A stretch of DNA of 36,325 nucleotides from a virus. Every line of letters begins with the position of its first letter. Within the stretch, counting starts at the first letter, position 1. A program made the translations under genes and the position numbers. Of the stretch, positions 16,063 to 34,432 are shown one piece after another. The stretch is from IMG/VR virus record IMGVR_UViG_3300029882_000069; one strand, 5' to 3'. The notes below the pieces were generated by a model. The model was given only the letters and a program-made list of their open reading frames with translations, was not told the origin of the DNA and did no database searches.

Positions 16063-16872
16063 ATGGGCTGGAACGGTTCAGGCCAATTTGTTCGCAACTT
16101 CTCATGGGTCAACGATGCGGCGAATAACATCCCCATCACGGCGAGCCGAGTGGATTCGGACACTAACGACATCACCGGAAATGGTTTTGGAAACACGCTG
16201 ACTCGCGACGGCCAAGGTTCGGCGACGGCGAACCTTCCGATGAACGGATTCAAGCATACTAACTGCGCTGTTGGCGTTAATCCTACCGATTACGCCACGA
16301 TGGCGCAGATCAACGTGCTATCACCCCTGGCCAGCCCAGCCTTCACTGGGATCCCTGCGGCACCCACGGCTGCGCCAGGGACGAGCACTACGCAAATCGC
16401 CACCACAGCGTTTGTGGCTGCCGCCCTGGTCAATTATCTACCTCTCACTGGCGGGAATCTGTCAGGCCAGCTCACCGTCAATCGCGGGGTGCTCGGCGGA
16501 ACGGCGGGAAACGCTCTAACGGCGTGGCAGGCCGTCGTTGGGGATGCGAATTCCGACAACATGTATCTCCAAATCGATCGAGTGAATAGCGGATCGACAT
16601 GGACGAGCGCGGCGTGGGGCCTATTTCGCGTGGTGGATAGCAGCGTCTTAGCCACCATCAGCTTCGGCGACGGTAACGGCGACGCTACCTATGCCCTAGG
16701 CCTCGGCTATCAAACGTCGTCGCTGCAATGCTCCACGGGGAACAACTGGCTGTTTACCGCCAGCGCGCAGATTAACGGCACATTTTCCTACGGTGGCGCG
16801 GCGCAACCGCACATTTTCGTCCAATCAGGCACCCCAACTGCGCTAGCGGTTGGCGACCTGTGGTTTGACTGA
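16063..16872 (+). CDS. tail fibre protein, 269 aa
   Basis: AGGAAA RBS. The N-terminus (...DGQGSATANLPMNGFKHTNCAVGVNPTDYATMAQ...SPAFTG.P.APTA) is the classic conserved phage fibre N-terminal motif. Confidence 0.7.
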   Translation: MGWNGSGQFVRNFSWVNDAANNIPITASRVDSDTNDITGNGFGNTLTRDGQGSATANLPMNGFKHTNCAVGVNPTDYATMAQINVLSPLASPAFTGIPAAPTAAPGTSTTQIATTAFVAAALVNYLPLTGGNLSGQLTVNRGVLGGTAGNALTAWQAVVGDANSDNMYLQIDRVNSGSTWTSAAWGLFRVVDSSVLATISFGDGNGDATYALGLGYQTSSLQCSTGNNWLFTASAQINGTFSYGGAAQPHIFVQSGTPTALAVGDLWFD

Positions 16873-21345: not shown

Positions 21346-21520
21346 GTCGCGCTCCCATCACTTCCCGTATGGTCTGTAGCCGCTTATCGCGGATCGTCTT
21401 GATCGCGTTGTCGTTGAACCGAACCTGCCACGATGAGGCTTTGCGGCCCTTGCGGCCAGCGGCGCTAAGGTCGTGTGTGCTGACGTGACCGCGCTGGAAC
21501 GGCTTTCCGGGACCGCTCAC
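21332..21520 (-). CDS. small basic protein, 62 aa (GTG start in GTGA overlap with the RecT stop)
   Basis: ORF 21332..21604 trimmed to the GTG that overlaps the RecT TGA. Confidence 0.35.
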   Translation of the reverse strand: MSGPGKPFQRGHVSTHDLSAAGRKGRKASSWQVRFNDNAIKTIRDKRLQTIREVMGARHEIH

Positions 21521-22509
21521 TCCGTCGCAACCTTCGGCAAGCGTGTTTTGATAACTTCGCGTTCGTGCGTGGTGAAAATTCCGCCCTTGCTGGGTGCTAG
21601 CCACAGGTCACATTGTGGACCGGCCTTAAGCTCATTCCAGGTTTCGGCCACGGTGTACAGGGCATCTACATTGTCATTGTCATCATCCCACAAGGCGATA
21701 TTGCGCTTGATCACTTCAATGACACCCTGATACTGATCTACGGCTTCGTCGTGCTTTTCTTTACGGCCATCTTCAAGCGTAAGCTGCGGTGGGCGGCCTT
21801 CAAAGTCGTATCCGCCTTCCGATACGTTGGCTACCTCAATGGCCTGAGCAAGACGATCATCGGTATACGGCCACGTCTTGCTAGCCCGTTTGATGACAGC
21901 CTTCTTGCTCATCTGCTCAAACCATTCTTCCCACGGCCCCTTGCGACCAGCCGATCCCTTGACGAATGCGCTCGATTTGCCGCGAATCTTTTCAAGCTCG
22001 GCAATGGGCATCGTCTCGGTGAGTATGTCGCCATCTTTGGTCTTGGCGATGCAGTACGCGCCTACAATCTCGCCGCGATCCTTCTTGAAGGGATCAGCCC
22101 GATGTTCGGGCATGGCTGCCGGGCCGTTGTAGCTGAACTGATCATCACCATAGACAACCTCAGCGCGTGACCAAAGTATGGCACCTGAGTCCGTGGCTAT
22201 CTTGATCAGGCCCTTGTAGCTGATATCCAGCACAATGGCGCCATCGCGTGGCACAAGGTAGGCATATCCATTGGCAGGATTAAGCGTGAGCCCTGTAGAG
22301 GCTACGTTTATCATCGCAAGGATGACGCTCTGTGGATTCTTGTTCGCCGTCTGCATCGAGAAGTCATTCTTCATCAATGCCTGCATGGCGAAGATCGATT
22401 CCTTGTCGTAGTTCACCGATTGTGCAGCAACCTTCTGGAAGCGATCCCGCGAATTCTTGATGGCCTCCTGGTACGGAAGAGCCTTCGCCAAGTTCGTATC
22501 GTTGCTCAT
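21517..22509 (-). CDS. recT: RecT-family single-strand annealing recombinase, 330 aa
   Basis: ...AMINVASTGLTLNPANGYAYLVPRDGAIVLDISYKGLIKIA... plus overall length and composition match RecT. Confidence 0.85.
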   Translation of the reverse strand: MSNDTNLAKALPYQEAIKNSRDRFQKVAAQSVNYDKESIFAMQALMKNDFSMQTANKNPQSVILAMINVASTGLTLNPANGYAYLVPRDGAIVLDISYKGLIKIATDSGAILWSRAEVVYGDDQFSYNGPAAMPEHRADPFKKDRGEIVGAYCIAKTKDGDILTETMPIAELEKIRGKSSAFVKGSAGRKGPWEEWFEQMSKKAVIKRASKTWPYTDDRLAQAIEVANVSEGGYDFEGRPPQLTLEDGRKEKHDEAVDQYQGVIEVIKRNIALWDDDNDNVDALYTVAETWNELKAGPQCDLWLAPSKGGIFTTHEREVIKTRLPKVATE

Positions 22510-23218: not shown

Positions 23219-23340
23219 GGCGGATTCTCCTGTAATGGCCTAACCACGATAGTAAGCAGCAATCTCTCTAGCCTTAAAAGGGCGAAAAGTTCTTCGCGCT
23301 CCTCGCTGCTAAGTTCCATCATTTCATGTAAATCAGGCAT
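23200..23340 (-). CDS. small hypothetical protein, 46 aa (below ORF-track cutoff)
   Basis: Hand-translated MPDLHEMMELSSEEREELFALLRLERLLL...*. TAATG overlap with the HNH stop. Confidence 0.3.
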
Positions 23341-23825
23341 TAAAGATGTTTTTCGCATCTCAAATCCTCCCACGTTTTTGAGCATTTTATCTTGCTTACA
23401 TAAGCTCTAGAAACTCCATACAACTCTGCAATCTTAGCGTTTGTCAGGTTCAAAGAACGTATCAAATTTATTTGGTCAAAAGTTAATTTTGCCCGTGGAT
23501 GAGTGTAACCAGAGAATCTACCTTTTTTATATCTATCAATCACATTTTCCTTTTGAGTGCCCAAGAAAAGATGTGAGGGGTTCACGCATGCCGGAGTATC
23601 GCATCTGTGACAAACGCACATTCCTTTAGGTATCCTACCCTTGTGTATTGTGAAGAAAAATCTGTGCGCTGAAACAGATTTCTTCCCTCTATATACTCTT
23701 CCATACTTTGCCCTATCCCATTTTCCAAGCCAAAGCCAACAACCTGTTTCAGTAACATCTGCGTAGTTGTTCAATAAAAAATTAGTAGCCCATCCCACAT
23801 CAATTTCTACCGCCTCAATACTCAT
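23340..23825 (-). mobile_element. HNH homing endonuclease gene, 161 aa (164 aa if ATG 23834 is used), in an AT-rich island
   Basis: ...CWLWLGKWDRAKYGRVY...SAHRFFF...CVCHRCDTPACVNPSHLFLGTQKENVID... is the HNH_3-type signature. The C-terminal part is HTH-like. GC is visibly lower than in the flanks. Confidence 0.85.
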
Positions 23826-24181
23826 GTTAGGCATTCCGTCTTAGCATCATCGAAAATGTCCTTAGCGAAACTCTTGATAGCCAGTTCGCGCAGCCTCTTG
23901 CCAAGTTCGGCATCATCGCCATTGGCCAGCAGTTCAACAATCTCTCCCTCCTTCAGCGAGTACACGGCATCGACTAGAGCGGTATCCCATCGGTCGGCAT
24001 GGTCCAAGTGCGTTACGGAAAGTCGCTTGCAGCAATCCATTACATCCAAGTCCATTCCCTTCTCGTCGTAAGTTTCCTCATTTACGAGACGATCACATTC
24101 ATCCTCGATCAGCATCGCGATAGCTTCCATCGGCGTGCGATGCCATGGAGAGTGAGGGATTTGTTTTACCCAAGTGTTCAT
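23822..24181 (-). CDS. strongly acidic small protein, 119 aa
   Basis: ORF with ATGA overlaps on both sides. About 27 Asp+Glu versus about 14 Lys+Arg by hand count. Confidence 0.55.
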   Translation of the reverse strand: MNTWVKQIPHSPWHRTPMEAIAMLIEDECDRLVNEETYDEKGMDLDVMDCCKRLSVTHLDHADRWDTALVDAVYSLKEGEIVELLANGDDAELGKRLRELAIKSFAKDIFDDAKTECLT

Positions 24182-25608
24182 GACTCAATCGCCGGATGAT
24201 AGGTCTCTTCGGTCAGACCAAATGTCCAGGCTACCGCTGCATGGGCCTTGGTGAGTTCAGGACTTACGCGAATGCTGTACTCCTTGAACCTTGATCCTTT
24301 TGGAGAGTTCATAGCTGCTTTCGCCGCGTCCCCAAACACTTCTATTGCCTCCTCACGCGTCATCACACCGTCAGGCTCCGGTGTCGAATTAAGGACGCGA
24401 ATCATCACGATAGGTTCGTCATTAGGCACTTCTTTGCGGTACAGAATTCCCGTAGCATCCCTATGAATAATCTCCGATCCGGAATCGAGCATGTAACGAT
24501 TCATGCCGTAACGCTCGATCATTACACGGCGAATTTCGGCATTCGATTCGTTGGCAATCCGTGTGACCGTGATCGATGATCGATCTTCAATAACGTCAGC
24601 AGGCACACGAACCCCGTGAATCGCATGGATGCTCCAACCGTCTGGATATTTCATGGCTGCTTCGCTTTCGTTATGCAGCCGGCCTTGATCGTCGCGATGC
24701 AAGGAGACAGGTCGCTCCGTAAGAATCACCCCGCCAGCAAAAGGCCACCACCATCCGCATTCTGAGAGTAAATCCAAGCCAGCCAACTTGTTGCAAATCT
24801 CCATTCCAAAAACTTGGCCAAAAAATTCGTAAAAAGCCAGCCACGCCGAGTCTTGTTGACCATACCCTGCTTCCCAGACCTGATCCCCGACCTGAGCCCC
24901 GACCTGATCCCCGACCTGAGCCCCGACCTGAGCCCCGACCTGATTCAAGACCTGAGCCCAGACCTGAGCCCAGACCTGATCCCCGACCTGAGCCCAGACC
25001 TGATCCCCGACCTGATTCCTGACCTGATCCCCGACCTGATTCAAGACCTGAGCCCAGACCTGATTCAAGACCTGAGCCCAGACCTGAGCCCAGACCTGAG
25101 CCCCTACCTGAGCCCAGACCTGAGCCCCGACCTGATTCCTGACCTGATCCCAGACCTGATTCCTGACCTGATCCCCGACCTGATTCCTGACCTGATCCCC
25201 GACCTGATTCAAGACCTGAGCCCAGACCTGAGCCCAGACCTGAGCCCCTACCTGAACCCAGACCTGATCCCAGACCTGATCCCAGACCTGATAACTGACC
25301 TGATTCCTGACCTGATCCCCGACCTGATCCCCGACCTGATTCAAGACCTGATTCCTGACCTGATCCCCTGAAATATTAGGAGAATGAGCGAGAAAATGCG
25401 CACCGATAGCTCCGGCAAAGGGAGAACCAAGCCAAATCTTCAGTTTTGGAATGGGAAGACCGGCGCAGCGATAGGCTTCGTCAGCGGCGTGTTCCATGGC
25501 CTCACGATCACATGGCCCTGTAGCCAGACCACGAGCCATCCACTTATCACGGAACTCCGGCAAGCGGCTTACTTGTTCTTTGTTGAGTTTTTCGATGCGC
25601 TTAGCCAT
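24178..25608 (-). CDS. tetrapeptide-repeat protein: N-domain, 41 x (x-x-Q-V), W-rich C-domain; 476 aa
   Basis: Long ORF in the early leftward operon. The repeat keeps perfect register. The flanking non-repetitive domains look like ordinary protein. Confidence 0.8.
24877..25368. repeat. 41 tandem 12-bp units (plus strand GACCTGnnnCCn) inside CDS 24178..25608
   Basis: Read directly. The invariant GACCTG half alternates with about 8 variant 6-mers (atcccc, agcccc, agccca, attcaa, attcct, atccca ...). Confidence 0.95.
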
Positions 25609-25610
25609 GA

Positions 25611-25931
25611 TCAGTCCTGTACCGACCGAATGGATTCGGGGTGGTATTCTCTTTGGATAACGATCTCGTAGAAACCAGCGGGAAGAGGGATTGTTGCGTG
25701 TTCCTCGTGCACTACGCTCGCAGCGCTGGCAACTTCCAGGAAGCGGCGAACAGCACCCGCCGCATCGGCCCGCGTGAACTCCACAGCGTCCTCCACACGC
25801 ACGGCATGGGCGTGGCCGGTCACTTCGCCGTGAGCTAGGACGATTCGGAATTCATTTTTGACGGCAGTGGAACCGTTGGGCAGCTCAGCAACCTGCCGGA
25901 TCATAACGTCGCCTTGACGGAACATTTTCAT
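25611..25931 (-). CDS. conserved-looking hypothetical protein (RQGDV...GEVTGHAH motif), 106 aa
   Basis: ORF. The motif pair is one I recall from uncharacterised small phage proteins. Confidence 0.6.
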   Translation of the reverse strand: MKMFRQGDVMIRQVAELPNGSTAVKNEFRIVLAHGEVTGHAHAVRVEDAVEFTRADAAGAVRRFLEVASAASVVHEEHATIPLPAGFYEIVIQREYHPESIRSVQD

Positions 25932-27167: not shown

Positions 27168-27436
27168 AAGACCCCAATAAGCCAAAGGCATCCCCGATAG
27201 TGAGTCTTGATCTAGGCGCCTACAAACTCAGCAAGAAGCATCAGTCTCAGCTTGAGGCATTCGATAAGATGGACGCGTACATGAAGTTGGCCGGAAAACA
27301 CGCGCCATGCCTTCGACTCAAGCGCGTGGACTACGCGGATATCAATGCGGCTATCAAATCTCAATCCAACGGTGAACGTGAATTGTCGAATCTTCGGTAT
27401 CGCGGCGTTCCTGTTATCAGCGAAGCTCGGTCATGA
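27164..27436 (+). CDS. hypothetical protein, 90 aa
   Basis: GGAGGA RBS and ATGA overlap. Confidence 0.5.
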   Translation: MKDPNKPKASPIVSLDLGAYKLSKKHQSQLEAFDKMDAYMKLAGKHAPCLRLKRVDYADINAAIKSQSNGERELSNLRYRGVPVISEARS

Positions 27437-27861
27437 CGATCCGCACCCACTTCCTACCCAAAGACGATCCTAAGAAGGCCGAATCCGTCATGCACCTCGT
27501 GATCGAGGAAGTCGCGGCCATGGTCCGGTCCAACAGGAAAATTCGGATCCGCGTGGACGAGTCAGTAAGTAAGCGCTCACTTGAGCAAAACGACATGCTT
27601 CATGCCATCTGCGGGGAGATATCCAAGCAGCGGCAGTGGGCCGGCAAGGAACGTGACGTGGAGGCATGGAAACGTCTGCTGGTGGACGCGTGGAGCCGCA
27701 CAGAAGGTGGCGCACAGTGCGAGGTCGTGCCTAGCCTAGATGGATCGTCTGTGGTGATGCTTGGCATACAGACCCGGAACATGAAAGTGGGACAGATGGC
27801 CGATCTGATTACGTTTGCCCACGCCTGGTGCTGGGAAAATGATGTGGAGTTGATCCAATGA
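27433..27861 (+). CDS. ninB: NinB-family recombination protein, 142 aa
   Basis: ...KRSLEQNDMLHAICGEISKQRQWAGKERDVEAWKRLL...VVPSLDGSSVVMLGIQTRNMKVGQMADLI... aligns by eye to lambda NinB (RSLDQN..LWA.LGD.S.Q..W.G...ESWK...VVPNL.G..V..G.ST..M.V.EFAEL). Confidence 0.8.
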   Translation: MTIRTHFLPKDDPKKAESVMHLVIEEVAAMVRSNRKIRIRVDESVSKRSLEQNDMLHAICGEISKQRQWAGKERDVEAWKRLLVDAWSRTEGGAQCEVVPSLDGSSVVMLGIQTRNMKVGQMADLITFAHAWCWENDVELIQ

Positions 27862-28136
27862 GTAGTGCCCTGGAACGCCAATGGTTCGCTGCCGTGGCTT
27901 CGCTGGAATCCTGTGTTCTTTGTCATTCCTATGGAGTCCAGGTAGCTCACCGTAACGAGGGGCGAGGCTTGGGGCAAAAGTCTAAACCGTGGAACACTGC
28001 TGCGCTCTGCCCAACGTGTCATCACGAGCTCGATAACGGCAAGCATCTTGATCAAGCTCAGCGACGATCCGCCATGGATCGAGCCATTGTCGAAACCCAC
28101 AACAAGCTGATGGAACTGAACAGGTGGCCTAAGTGA
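27858..28136 (+). CDS. YbcO/DUF1364-like putative nuclease, 92 aa
   Basis: CVLCH..GVQVAHRNEGRGLGQKSKP....ALCPTCHHELD resembles the Cys/His pattern of DLP12 YbcO, recalled from memory. It sits between ninB and rusA as in lambdoid nin regions. Confidence 0.5.
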   Translation: MSSALERQWFAAVASLESCVLCHSYGVQVAHRNEGRGLGQKSKPWNTAALCPTCHHELDNGKHLDQAQRRSAMDRAIVETHNKLMELNRWPK

Positions 28137-28230: not shown

Positions 28231-28443
28231 ATGAGACCCGACCCCGTCTGGAAGCGCATCCTGAAGGCGCTGGAACTTGGGCCGATGACGAGGCATCAGC
28301 TTTGCCTGTGCCTGAGCATGAGTCTGAGCTCGATTGAGGCAGCGTTAGGCTGGCTGGCTGCGCGTGGCGCGATTCTGGTCGTCGGAAAGCTCAAGAAGAA
28401 CAGGCAGGGTCATCCACTGTGGATCTATGGGCTGGTGCTATGA
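28231..28443 (+). CDS. small winged-helix-like DNA-binding protein, 70 aa (start uncertain; the ORF is open from GTG 28165)
   Basis: WKRILKALELGPMTRHQLCLCLSMSLSSIEAALGWLAARGAI is a wHTH-type pattern. Confidence 0.45.
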   Translation: MRPDPVWKRILKALELGPMTRHQLCLCLSMSLSSIEAALGWLAARGAILVVGKLKKNRQGHPLWIYGLVL

Positions 28444-28465
28444 ACATTGCCACGAGGATGACTAT

Positions 28466-28831
28466 ATGAAGGAGCTTATCCTTCCCTGGCCTGATACGGA
28501 TTTACACCCTAATCGACGTGTCCATTGGGCTCACAAGGCTAAAGCCGCAAAATCTGCCAGATTGACCGGCTTCGTCTTGGCTAGAGATGCTGGGTGGAAT
28601 GGCTCAAATCTTCCAGAAGGCCCCCTTCACCTTTGGATAGACGGATATCCTAGGGATAAGCGTCGGCGTGACGCAGACGGCCTTCTAAGCAGCCTTAAAT
28701 CAGCCTTAGACGGTATTGCCGATGCACTCGGCATCGATGACCGTCGATTCGTGCCTCACCCTTGGGTGAAAGACGAGGTGCGAAAGAATGGTGAGGTTAG
28801 GATTCGCCTTACTTCATGTCCGACACCATGA
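28466..28831 (+). CDS. rusA: RusA-family Holliday junction resolvase, 121 aa
   Basis: LPWPD...PN.R.HW... and PRDKRRRDADGLLSSLKSALDGIADALGIDD align by eye to E. coli RusA (LPWPPS..., [23 protein letters not shown]..DD). Confidence 0.8.
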   Translation: MKELILPWPDTDLHPNRRVHWAHKAKAAKSARLTGFVLARDAGWNGSNLPEGPLHLWIDGYPRDKRRRDADGLLSSLKSALDGIADALGIDDRRFVPHPWVKDEVRKNGEVRIRLTSCPTP

Positions 28832-32687: not shown

Positions 32688-32957
32688 ATGGCAGCACGCA
32701 CAAGGCGTATTACCCAGAACGAAAAGATACGCGAGAAGATTCAGGCAGGTATGCTCATCAAGGGCCTGCATGACCATTTCGAGGGTAAGCGAGAGCTATC
32801 AGCCACCCAACTTAAGTCTGCTGAAATTTTGTTAAGGAAATCAGTACCGGACTTGAGCGCTGTTGAGATGACTTCTGACGTTAACTTGAAGGGTGAGGTT
32901 GCAATTAGGCCGGTGCTCACTCGCGAAGAGTGGCTCAAGCTGCACAAGGCGAAGTAA
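32688..32957 (+). CDS. putative terminase small subunit, 89 aa
   Basis: Immediately upstream of TerL. ...ATQLKSAEILLRKSVPDLSAVE... resembles short TerS proteins, as recalled. Confidence 0.55.
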   Translation: MAARTRRITQNEKIREKIQAGMLIKGLHDHFEGKRELSATQLKSAEILLRKSVPDLSAVEMTSDVNLKGEVAIRPVLTREEWLKLHKAK

Positions 32958-32959
32958 GC

Positions 32960-34432
32960 ATGTGGTATCCGCAGCCGGGTCATCAGCTCGCCGCCTTTGA
33001 GGCCGACTGGTGCGAAGATCTCTTCTACGGCGGTGAGCGCGGGGGCGGTAAGTCGGACTTCCAGTTGGGTTGGCAAGAGGATGGCGCCCTGCGCTACGGT
33101 CAGGCCCATCGCGGCATCCTATTCCGCAAGACCTATGCTGAGCTGGAGGAGCTTCAATCCCGCGCCATGGAGATATTTCCGGGCGAGGGCGCGATCTACA
33201 AGACGCAGCCTAGCGCCGACTATCCGTTCTCCAACAGCTGGTACTGGCCCAACGGCGCGAGTACCAAGATGCGCTTCATCGAGGCTGAGAAGGATTACGG
33301 GCGATATCACGGACACTCGTATACCCGCATTGGGTTCGACGAGGTCACGGAATACGCCACACAAGCGCCGCTGATCAAGATGTACTCCACGCTGCGCAGC
33401 CCTTTCGGCGTGCCTTGCAGCGTTCGATCCACAGGAAACCCAGGCGGTGCCGGTCATATCTGGGTCAAGAGTCGCTACATCGACCGTGCGCCACCCATGA
33501 CACCTTACCTTGATGTCGATGACGGCATGACGCGGATGTTTGTGCCTAGCGCGCTGGCCGATAACGTGATCCTGGTCAAGCAGGATCCTAAGTACAGAAG
33601 CCGTATCATCGCGGCGACCAATGGCAATGAAGCCTTGCGCAAGGCATGGCTAGAGGGGGATTGGAACATAGTTGCCGGCGCGTTCTTCGATTGCTGGAAT
33701 AGTAAACTGCATGTGGTAAAGCCGTTTAGTATTCCTGATGAATGGGGGCGCATACGCTCAGGGGACTGGGGTAGCGCTAGACCATTCAGCTTTGGATGGT
33801 GGGCAGTTGCTACTGACCCCTACACGCTGGAATCTGGTTTGGTCATTCCTCGTGGCGCGATGGTTCGTTACCGTGAGTGGTACGGCTGCAAAGACCCTAT
33901 CAACGAGCCCAACGTGGGCCTGAAGCTCACGGCCGAGGATGTTGGTGCCTATATCCTAGAGCTTGAAAAGAATGATCCTAAGATCAACGATGCGGTACTC
34001 GATCCTGCCGCCTTCACTCAAGACGGGGGGCCCAGCATTGTGGAACGCATTGTGAAGGGTGCGCGGAGCCAGATATGGTTTAGGCGCGCCGATAACAAAC
34101 GCGTTGCCAAGGCTGGCGCTATGGGTGGCTGGGACCAGGTGCGAGCAAGAATGCTGGGCGACAGCGATGGGCCTGCGATCTACTGCTTTGATACGTGCAC
34201 GGATTCCATACGCACGATCCCCTTGCTTCAGCACGACAAGCTGAAGCTTGAGGACATCGATACGGAGATGGAAGATCACGCCGCTGACGAATGGCGCTAC
34301 GCTTGCATGTCCCGACCCTATGTGAGAAAGTCTGCCGAAGAGTCAAAGCCACGTTTTCTGCATGAAATGACTGCAAATGACGTATTTTGGCCGAAGAAAC
34401 AGTCCAACAAGCTTCAAAACGACAGGATTTGA
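32960..34432 (+). CDS. terL: terminase large subunit, 490 aa
   Basis: Walker A-like GGERGGGKSD near the N-terminus, a Walker B-like IGFDEV, and a C-terminal acidic nuclease-type region. Followed by the portal gene. Confidence 0.9.
   Translation: MWYPQPGHQLAAFEADWCEDLFYGGERGGGKSDFQLGWQEDGALRYGQAHRGILFRKTYAELEELQSRAMEIFPGEGAIYKTQPSADYPFSNSWYWPNGASTKMRFIEAEKDYGRYHGHSYTRIGFDEVTEYATQAPLIKMYSTLRSPFGVPCSVRSTGNPGGAGHIWVKSRYIDRAPPMTPYLDVDDGMTRMFVPSALADNVILVKQDPKYRSRIIAATNGNEALRKAWLEGDWNIVAGAFFDCWNSKLHVVKPFSIPDEWGRIRSGDWGSARPFSFGWWAVATDPYTLESGLVIPRGAMVRYREWYGCKDPINEPNVGLKLTAEDVGAYILELEKNDPKINDAVLDPAAFTQDGGPSIVERIVKGARSQIWFRRADNKRVAKAGAMGGWDQVRARMLGDSDGPAIYCFDTCTDSIRTIPLLQHDKLKLEDIDTEMEDHAADEWRYACMSRPYVRKSAEESKPRFLHEMTANDVFWPKKQSNKLQNDRI

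Follow-up and report, generated by a model that had tools for sequence, protein, structure and literature searches.

What is a run of 41 near-identical tetrapeptides doing in an early phage gene, and is it the DNA or the peptide that is being kept? This question is raised by a stretch of 36,325 nucleotides from IMG/VR virus record IMGVR_UViG_3300029882_000069 (the whole stretch is hereafter called the window), in which an open reading frame (ORF) on the minus strand encodes a 476-aa protein built around such a run (Table 1). Here, we found that the array is a variable-number tandem repeat (VNTR) that is protein-coding and kept in frame within one gene of a conserved two-gene module. Repeat-tunable phage proteins were already known, and the protein belongs to the large, uncharacterised DUF6745 family.

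The repeat array and its codons

Translation of the gene gave three parts: an N-terminal part of 80 aa, exactly 41 in-register and uninterrupted ..QV units (residues 81-244), and a C-terminal part of 232 aa with seven Trp residues. This agrees with the initial annotation of the locus, which had proposed 41 x-x-Q-V units between an N-terminal domain of about 80 aa and a Trp-rich domain of about 230 aa. All of the peptide cassettes listed there were also recovered, namely GDQV (10 units), WAQV (9), RNQV (6), GAQV (6), LNQV (5), WDQV (3), SYQV (1) and WVQV (1). Tandem Repeats Finder reported the array as a single strong match and by far the strongest repeat in the window (24872..25367, period 12, 41.3 copies, 84% matches, 0% indels, score 586), and all secondary blastn matches of the array fell inside 24866..25369. 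The array is real and far beyond chance: GACCTG, the plus-strand word for Q-V, occurs 54 times in the window as against 18.3 ± 4.1 times in shuffled sequences, and 39 of these copies are phased in the array.

At the nucleotide level, positions 6-11 of the unit were invariant, position 12 was C in 39 units and A in two, and variation was found at positions 1 (T in 18 units, G in 16 and A in 7), 2, 4 and 5. The GACCTG half had been described as essentially invariant, which holds for 39 of the 41 units, the other two having a synonymous GTA codon for Val. With these two, nine DNA cassettes could be distinguished instead of about eight, and variation extends from the two variable codons into that of Val. 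The unit consensus given earlier, GACCTGnnnCCn, fits 33 of the 41 units and fails in the remaining eight. There was also a weak higher-order signal, one block of five units occurring twice (P=0.034).

For a wider view of codon usage, arrays were taken from 85 loci, which yielded 74 distinct arrays with 10 or more units; the genomes concerned have a G+C content of 28-69%. Within an array the constant codons were nearly always monomorphic (for example, CAG x60 and GTC x60), whereas between arrays they varied (CAG/CAA; GTC/GTG/GTT/GTA; and AGC/TCG/TCC/AGT/TCT for Ser). Mean within-array diversity was 0.61 at nucleotide 1 and 0.41 at nucleotide 5, which is 15-30 times the silent-site level, the third positions (nucleotides 3, 6, 9 and 12) showing values of 0.02-0.04. 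The first variable residue (x1) was W, G or R in 86% of units and almost always encoded by NGG (Gly was GGG in 657 of 680 cases, and Arg was AGG or CGG in 87%), and the second (x2) was D or A in 88% of units (GAY or GCY). The reading frame through the array was always preserved in relatives. Since codons are uniform within arrays and synonymously different between them, the peptide is conserved and the units evolve in concert. The simplest reading of these codon patterns is that single-base changes around the lone Trp codon TGG convert units into one another while the remainder of the unit is homogenised, and that the x1/x2 mixture is maintained by selection. Neighbouring units avoided equal x1 residues (W-W observed/expected 0.80, z = -4.9), the opposite of what plain duplication would be expected to give; no periodicity in the spacing of W, G, R, D and A could be observed beyond this nearest-neighbour avoidance.

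The same data bear on a DNA-level explanation, also raised in the initial annotation, in which the 41 phased GACCTG words would be iterons, an origin or a protein-binding array lying inside a reading frame. It would fit the 39 phased copies, as compared with a chance level elsewhere in the window, and the fact that no replication initiator was recognised in the window. However, a conserved GACCTG binding word is ruled out because the constant codons differ between arrays: the peptide is conserved in relatives and the word is not (CAA-GTC, CAG-GTG, AGC-GTC, TCG-GTC and others are used, Ser being AGC versus TCG, TCC or AGT). Moreover, most family members (68% of full-length representatives, see below) have a non-repetitive linker at the array position, and a Streptomyces member is without the array. 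No AT-rich flank was seen, and the sense strand of the array folded with no excess stability over shuffled sequences (-199.8 versus -196.5 ± 13.8 kcal/mol), G-quadruplexes adding about 1.5 kcal/mol despite 29 G3+ tracts. We regard a DNA-level element as extremely improbable, and the iteron proposal was given up.

Two further features of the array should be mentioned. An antisense ORF (24814..25371, plus strand, 185 aa, TTG start) reads through it as PDLI/PDLS repeats; it is open for the sole reason that no stop codon falls in this frame of the unit, and it was treated as a by-product of the array. The variable region of a diversity-generating retroelement was considered as well and rejected, there being no second copy of the array and the variable nucleotides (T/G/A at nucleotide 1 and A/C at nucleotide 5) not being adenine-specific as in retroelement diversification; no template repeat was found, the reverse transcriptase search being non-exhaustive.

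Gain and loss of units

Comparison of relatives revealed that the array is the fastest-evolving part of the gene, units being gained and lost far faster than the flanking domains change. Seven of eight pairs of homologues with at least 96% identical flanks differed in unit number, and pairs with 100% identical flanks had 26 versus 17 units and 39 versus 27 units. In four clusters defined at 90% identity, the N- and C-terminal flanks of every full-length member were identical to those of the representative, and the differences, all confined to the array, were indels of 3-12 units or x1/x2 substitutions. The window's own lineage comprised alleles of 41, 41, 41 and 29 units with one R/W change; the P0002 lineage (10 alleles) had 35, 31, 27 and 24 units with substitutions only at x1 or x2; the P0013 lineage had 45 and 36 units with one R/W change; and the P0089 lineage had 31 and 36 units with no other differences. 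Cassette order was not conserved among alleles. Such whole-unit differences between identical flanks, together with the homogenised codons, bear out the earlier proposal of unit shuffling under protein-level constraint. Replication slippage or unequal recombination between near-identical 12-bp units would produce the length and cassette-order variants, and selection would keep the x1/x2 mixture.

It should be considered whether the length and order of the array could be an assembly artefact and the polymorphism a collapse of short reads, a concern that the initial annotation shared. About 20 of 80 IMG/VR contigs with relatives end at or inside the array (L011, L015, L018, L034, L035 and so on; further ones are L038, L041, L043, L045, L046, L054 and others), and allele deletions lie between internally repeated blocks. 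In the 29-unit allele, 12 units are missing between two WA-WA-LN blocks (removal of units 15-26 or of units 13-24 being equivalent), and the junction shares 55 nt. Some length variants could be assembly collapses. On the other hand, two independent assemblies and a member recorded on five contigs agree on 41 units: L086, an independent ENA assembly of the same phage, has 41 units and shows two differences from the window in 14,753 bp, the first of them being AGG/TGG at nucleotide 1 of unit 16, and P0381, the five-contig member, has the window's exact array and flanks. The longest exact repeat inside the array is 67 nt, so that the array is resolvable at k>67. Finished genomes of isolates and cultured phages or prophages have arrays, too, and real differences in repeat number are seen in the Sanger-era genomes of mycobacteriophage Tweety and its relatives (PMC2884959). 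An artefact is thus very improbable as a general explanation, and the 41 units of the window were reproduced, in short-read assemblies. In practical terms, such arrays break or collapse metagenomic assemblies, and since contigs stop at the array its diversity is under-sampled and under-measured in metagenomes. The second difference between the window and L086 is at position 16455 (minus-strand C in the window and A in L086), in the structural-gene region.

The occurrence of the array was then compared across the family. Among the top 120 homologues, 119 had at least three period-4 units, nearly all of the form x-x-[Q/S]-[V/L/I] and mostly directly after the N-domain, with perfect runs of 3-50 units; this sample is biased, as the query's own repeats seeded the word-indexed search. 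The x-x-S-V repeats between similar N- and C-terminal domains that had been mentioned in the initial annotation were found in relatives. An unbiased set was obtained by a search with the C-domain. In its 120 full-length representatives, linker length ranged from 0 to 653 aa, and the linker was mostly a perfect array in 21%, partly so in 12% and non-repetitive in 68%. Non-repetitive linkers showed a hydrophobic period of four, with observed/expected ratios of 0.57, 0.85, 1.63 and 0.96 at lags 2, 3, 4 and 7, respectively. We view the array as one of the states that a variable linker between two conserved domains can take; in roughly a fifth to a third of lineages, the present one included, this linker has become an array of 12-bp units. 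For example, a Mycobacterium abscessus prophage protein has about 46 [W/R/G][G/D]QL units, and a Streptomyces plasmid member, which matches PF20530 end to end (E=1.4e-116), has a non-repetitive linker. Some members have two or three copies of DUF6745 per protein (P0247, 861 aa; P0288, 847 aa; P0276, 941 aa), and one of this group has a 653-aa non-repetitive linker from the N-domain to DUF6745. Deinococcus proteins (L089:6398-7399 and L090:6365-7366) keep only the C-terminal half of DUF6745, and apparent leucine-rich repeats (LxxLPxxL, identified by eye) replace the N-domain and the array; a Pfam scan of the L089 protein returned DUF6745 only.

The two-gene module and its proposed role

The C-domain matches Pfam DUF6745 (PF20530) with 212.9 bits (E=3.9e-63; gathering cut-off 27 bits), as the initial annotation had tentatively proposed, over residues 245-416 plus a second stretch. 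The Pfam entry covers the C-domain only and gives no function, and the N-domain, the linker or array and the partner lie outside it. At least 1,428 homologues of the 476-aa protein were identified by the word-indexed search, all of the top 120 bearing PF20530, and an exhaustive phmmer search with the C-domain alone gave 8,350 cluster representatives (clustering at 50% identity) at a threshold of E<=1e-3, and 5,082 when the threshold was E<=1e-10. The family spans Proteobacteria, Actinomycetota, Deinococcota, Cyanobacteria, Planctomycetota, Chloroflexota and Acidobacteriota, and at least 494 IMG/VR contigs carry relatives, phages of 97-153 kb being among them. Conserved motifs of DUF6745 include YGQxD, GWWWPF, TERP, RDxxGRLH, YPDGW, HGVRVP and NAEx..., and its residues D306, H312, D323, H331, N356 and E358 are invariant. 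The N-domain is outside the Pfam model, yet it is conserved family-wide: G27, Y46, S62 and P63 were invariant in two alignments, and a profile of the domain detected it in 120 of 150 family representatives.

An AlphaFold2 model based on a 60-sequence alignment had a local confidence score (pLDDT) of 94-97 for residues 11-70 and 92-98 for DUF6745 (about residues 250-470). The array was drawn as three helices with pLDDT 40-68, which is not reliable. Foldseek with the full 476-aa protein gave no fold match in the PDB (best E=0.73) and, in BFVD, only other uncharacterised DUF6745 proteins, such as that of Microcystis phage LMM01. A sequence profile search of the PDB returned low-complexity repeats only, NCBIfam and PADLOC added nothing, and PHROGs gave unannotated families only. 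No paper naming DUF6745 was found in a literature search, and a search on 12-bp repeats returned nothing relevant. Both the N-domain and the DUF6745 domain are conserved and, according to the model, confidently foldable, and neither has a known fold or function.

The initial annotation of the neighbourhood missed a conserved gene upstream, whose stop codon is 2 nt before the start codon of the DUF6745 gene. In 57 of 65 non-redundant loci with both flanks present, a homologue of this partner directly adjoined the DUF6745 gene in the same orientation, lying upstream of it in 38 loci and downstream in 19; outside the window, adjacency was found in a Streptomyces plasmid (E=3e-26), Deinococcus plasmids (about 1e-24) and a Mycobacterium prophage (2e-12). 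The association of the partner with DUF6745 genes is near-obligate in different phyla, and thus the functional unit is a two-gene module. No third conserved gene was present among 136 immediate neighbours scanned; most were orphans, and genes for recombination and replication were found here and there. At E<=1e-3 the partner has 521 homologues, which are all unnamed and without a Pfam domain; the protein is His-rich and has the invariant motifs QGDV, GxxTGHxH and HEEH and a C-terminal Asp. Its AlphaFold2 model is all-beta with eight strands (pLDDT 90.7), and Foldseek found no match to it in the PDB (best E=0.37). The conserved His/Asp/Glu/Arg motifs of both DUF6745 and its partner suggest a role in metal binding or in catalysis.

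A similar design is known from gp54 of Tweety, in which unique N- and C-terminal regions surround 48 A-A-[G/W/Q]-[S/Y] units of 12 bp (Pham et al., 2007, PMC2884959). There, third codon positions are invariant and variation is found at first and second positions, which was considered 'consistent with selection for variation', and relatives carry 26 and 15 units (PMC2884959). Our re-analysis of gp54 (L091:5645-6769) gave 49 units, with GCC x49 and GCA x49 and with GGG (34), TGG (11) and CAG (3), and AGC (38) and TAC (10), at the other two codons. The window protein and gp54 (with Che8 gp57 and PMC gp51) share dozens of 12-bp-coded tetrapeptides between unique end regions, two constant and two variable residues per unit, monomorphic constant codons with invariant third positions, GGG/TGG toggling at a variable codon and repeat numbers that differ among close relatives; gp54 is likewise an early-region phage gene, located right of the integrase and immunity genes. 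In the passages of a review that deal with it (Hatfull, 2022, PMC9262239, citing Dedrick et al., 2017), Tweety mutants escaping Phrann gp29/gp30, a (p)ppGpp-synthetase-like defence, are reported to map to gene 54 and to have altered repeat numbers, and these changes are taken to suggest a tuned juxtaposition of the end domains.

By sequence comparison, gp54 is not homologous to the window protein; the two are alike in genetics only and are not of the same family. In hmmsearch, gp54 gave E=0.3 with the family profile (E>0.1 for family and partner profiles), it is without a Pfam family, no partner homologue was found near it, and tblastn with the window protein missed Tweety. The units also differ (A-A-[G/W/Q]-[S/Y] in gp54 versus [W/G/R]-[D/A]-[Q/S]-V in the DUF6745 protein), and gp54 is found in mycobacteriophages alone, as opposed to the many phyla of the DUF6745 module. 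The shared codon logic suggests that such arrays arise by a common route, mutational or selective.

On the basis of the early-left operon beside recombination genes and the gp54 precedent, we infer a role in conflict, most plausibly in counter-defence or takeover. Our tentative proposal, to which we assign a probability of roughly 0.45, is that the module has a tunable conflict function of phages and other mobile elements, most plausibly early counter-defence or host takeover, that is retuned via repeat number. The array would be a spacer, probably helical, whose length and surface could be quickly re-tuned, and it would set how the N-domain and DUF6745, with the partner protein, engage their target. 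For an anti-defence or takeover role, itself inferential, gp54 is a concrete precedent.

Several observations weigh against this proposal. First, gp54 has no DUF6745 and no partner gene, its N-domain is 142 aa and its C-terminal tail about 36 aa, and as it is not homologous, function can be transferred by analogy alone. Second, most family members have no perfect array, and thus the array is not essential for the core activity of the module. Third, the structure of the array is predicted only at the low pLDDT given above. Fourth, allele length differences come from short-read assemblies in which many contigs end at the array, and the 55-nt junction of the 29-unit allele could be a collapse at low k. 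Fifth, the module is also found outside phages, in three plasmids where it abuts the STM4011-4015 radical S-adenosylmethionine (SAM) cluster, and in a chromosomal island that also carries transposases and a gene for type II restriction-modification. Finally, close linkage in a two-gene cassette is no less characteristic of defence or toxin-antitoxin systems than of anti-defence.

The last point leads to the main competing explanation, a defence, abortive-infection or toxin-antitoxin-like module on mobile elements, in which the small His-rich protein would regulate or counteract DUF6745, itself an effector or a sensor, and the variable array would tune the recognition of invading phages instead of that of host defences. 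A tightly linked two-gene cassette with flexible gene order would suit it, as would the plasmids and islands where the module lies near a RES-Xre toxin-antitoxin pair, transposases, a type II restriction-modification gene and STM4011-4015, and the apparent leucine-rich repeats (by eye) of the Deinococcus members, a typical sensor module. Prophages commonly carry defence-type systems, as stated in the portion of the review that concerns them (Hatfull, 2022, PMC9262239). However, no PADLOC model was above noise for either protein: in PADLOC-DB v2 the sole match had 16 bits on the repeat (PDC-S29, E=0.0013), which is at noise level, no match was found for the partner, and the Deinococcus pair had none beyond noise. 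Furthermore, the genes are translationally coupled, have no promoter-like site to themselves and lie in a lytic early-left operon, unlike a lysogeny-expressed cassette; relatives are found in phage contigs of 97-153 kb, which are probably virulent; and neither protein has a DNA-binding domain of the antitoxin type. A defence role appears doubtful, although it is the strongest of the alternatives.

Another possibility is that the array is not a spacer of variable length but a folded period-4 solenoid or superhelix, in which the variable residues of the units would make up a surface or 'code' that recognises a linear target, as in transcription activator-like effector (TALE) repeats. TALE repeats also consist of DNA units that are near-identical except for two adjacent hypervariable codons, and two constant plus two hypervariable residues per unit, in otherwise homogenised DNA, would fit such a fold. 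The non-array linkers keep a pure period-4 hydrophobic signal without the lag-3/lag-7 signal of amphipathic helices, and the apparent leucine-rich repeat substitution in Deinococcus would also fit. On the other hand, the TALE unit is 34 aa versus 4 aa here, and no folded repeat or nucleic-acid binding is indicated in our case. AlphaFold2 gave low-confidence helices only and no solenoid, x1 and x2 combine almost at random, cassette order has no long-range periodicity, the free unit number among alleles is hard to square with a fixed target, and a four-residue unit is too small to fold as a repeat alone. We consider a solenoid improbable. Of the long helix or new solenoid predicted earlier from the spacing of Val, the helix has its counterpart in the low-confidence AlphaFold2 helices, and neither is established. 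The narrower idea that the [W/G/R][D/A] di-residues would be a programmable recognition surface, that is, a minimal repeat 'code' and not a passive spacer, is quite improbable too. If it were true, phages and other mobile elements would have in the DUF6745 module a binder or effector of a new class, quickly reprogrammable and directed at a linear or repetitive target, with slippage and intra-array conversion as a built-in diversification mechanism.

Pentapeptide-repeat proteins (PF00805; Qnr/MfpA beta-helices) resemble the window protein in having short tandem repeats with a conserved hydrophobic centre and D/N, S/T and G/R residues around it, and in being found on mobile elements. They differ in period (five versus four here) and in that AlphaFold2 draws helix and not beta-helix for the window protein, which had no Pfam pentapeptide match at E<=1. 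To our knowledge, near-identical DNA units varying in number are not a feature of pentapeptide proteins. Among the 136 flanking ORFs scanned, pentapeptide-repeat genes adjoined the module at two loci (PF00805, best E=6e-40).

Until now, Tweety gp54 was the sole phage protein re-tuned by gain and loss of tetrapeptide repeats, and the same design is now seen in an unrelated and very large family, culturable isolates included, with a conserved partner, neither protein having a known fold. If the analogy with gp54 holds, in-frame VNTR linkers may be a general and fast route of phage adaptation in host conflict, and the DUF6745 pair may be an abundant, unexplored conflict module. Tractable systems would be genes 37-38 of the M. 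abscessus prophage prophiGD102-1, Rhizobium lusitanum Opo-234, Ruegeria sp. EL01 and the Streptomyces and Deinococcus plasmids.

Genomic context

The window phage is small and of lambdoid type, and also codes for a Cro-like helix-turn-helix protein. The positions of the features discussed are given in Table 1. According to gene calls on L086, the module constitutes genes 2 and 3 of the leftward early operon, so the repeat gene was correctly placed as the third gene in the initial annotation. No promoter-like site on the module's own strand and no convincing terminator were seen.

Table 1 Positions of the two-gene module, its parts and other features in the window
Feature	Position	Strand	Basis or remark
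Three-domain protein gene (N-domain, 41 x-x-Q-V, DUF6745)	24178..25608	minus	ORF, 476 aa
N-terminal conserved domain, residues 1-80	25369..25608	minus	Alignments, AlphaFold2, N-domain profile
41 twelve-bp units NGG-GMT-CAG-GTC, residues 81-244	24877..25368	minus	Translation, Tandem Repeats Finder
Array peptide unit [G/W/R/L/S][D/A/N/Y/V]-Q-V; hypervariable in-frame VNTR linker	24877..25368	minus	
C-terminal DUF6745 domain, residues 245-476, and stop codon	24178..24876	minus	Pfam PF20530
Partner gene, 106-aa all-beta protein (AlphaFold2 model)	25611..25931	minus	phrog_27831, E=1.4e-17
Acidic 119-aa protein, 27 D+E versus 14 K+R	23822..24181	minus	No match in any library
HNH_3 endonuclease	23340..23834	minus	E=5e-11
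RecT	21517..22509		Next to the module's early operon
NinB	27433..27861		Rightward early region
Second HNH endonuclease	27858..28136	plus	phrog_131, E=1.5e-19; between NinB and RusA-like resolvase
RusA-like resolvase	28364..28831		
Large terminase	32930..34432		

The HNH_3 gene follows the module in the window and in L086. The acidic protein and the endonuclease are present as the initial annotation had described them, but they are not conserved next to the module, neither being beside it in the other relatives examined. No tRNA genes or Rfam families were found in the window, and no integrase or replication initiator was recognised among the window ORFs scanned. A megablast search of the locus against GenBank phages gave no match, nor did exact flank probes against metagenome and viral collections.

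In relatives, the module was found beside ERF and YqaJ in one case, beside YqaJ and upstream of Lar and an integrase in a Hydrogenophaga prophage, and after Gam, ERF and RepA in prophiGD102-1. In the three plasmids mentioned above, one from Streptomyces (L088:1-4151) and two from Deinococcus (L089:7378-13390 and L090:7353-13325), the pair directly abuts STM4011-STM4015. In the literature searched, this cluster was mentioned in passing only, by three papers on Salmonella, with no functional account found. It comprises two radical-SAM proteins, a sulfatase-like hydrolase, STM4014 and two STM4015 proteins, one with a weak leucine-rich repeat match, and the pair is convergent with it in Deinococcus and divergent from it in Streptomyces.

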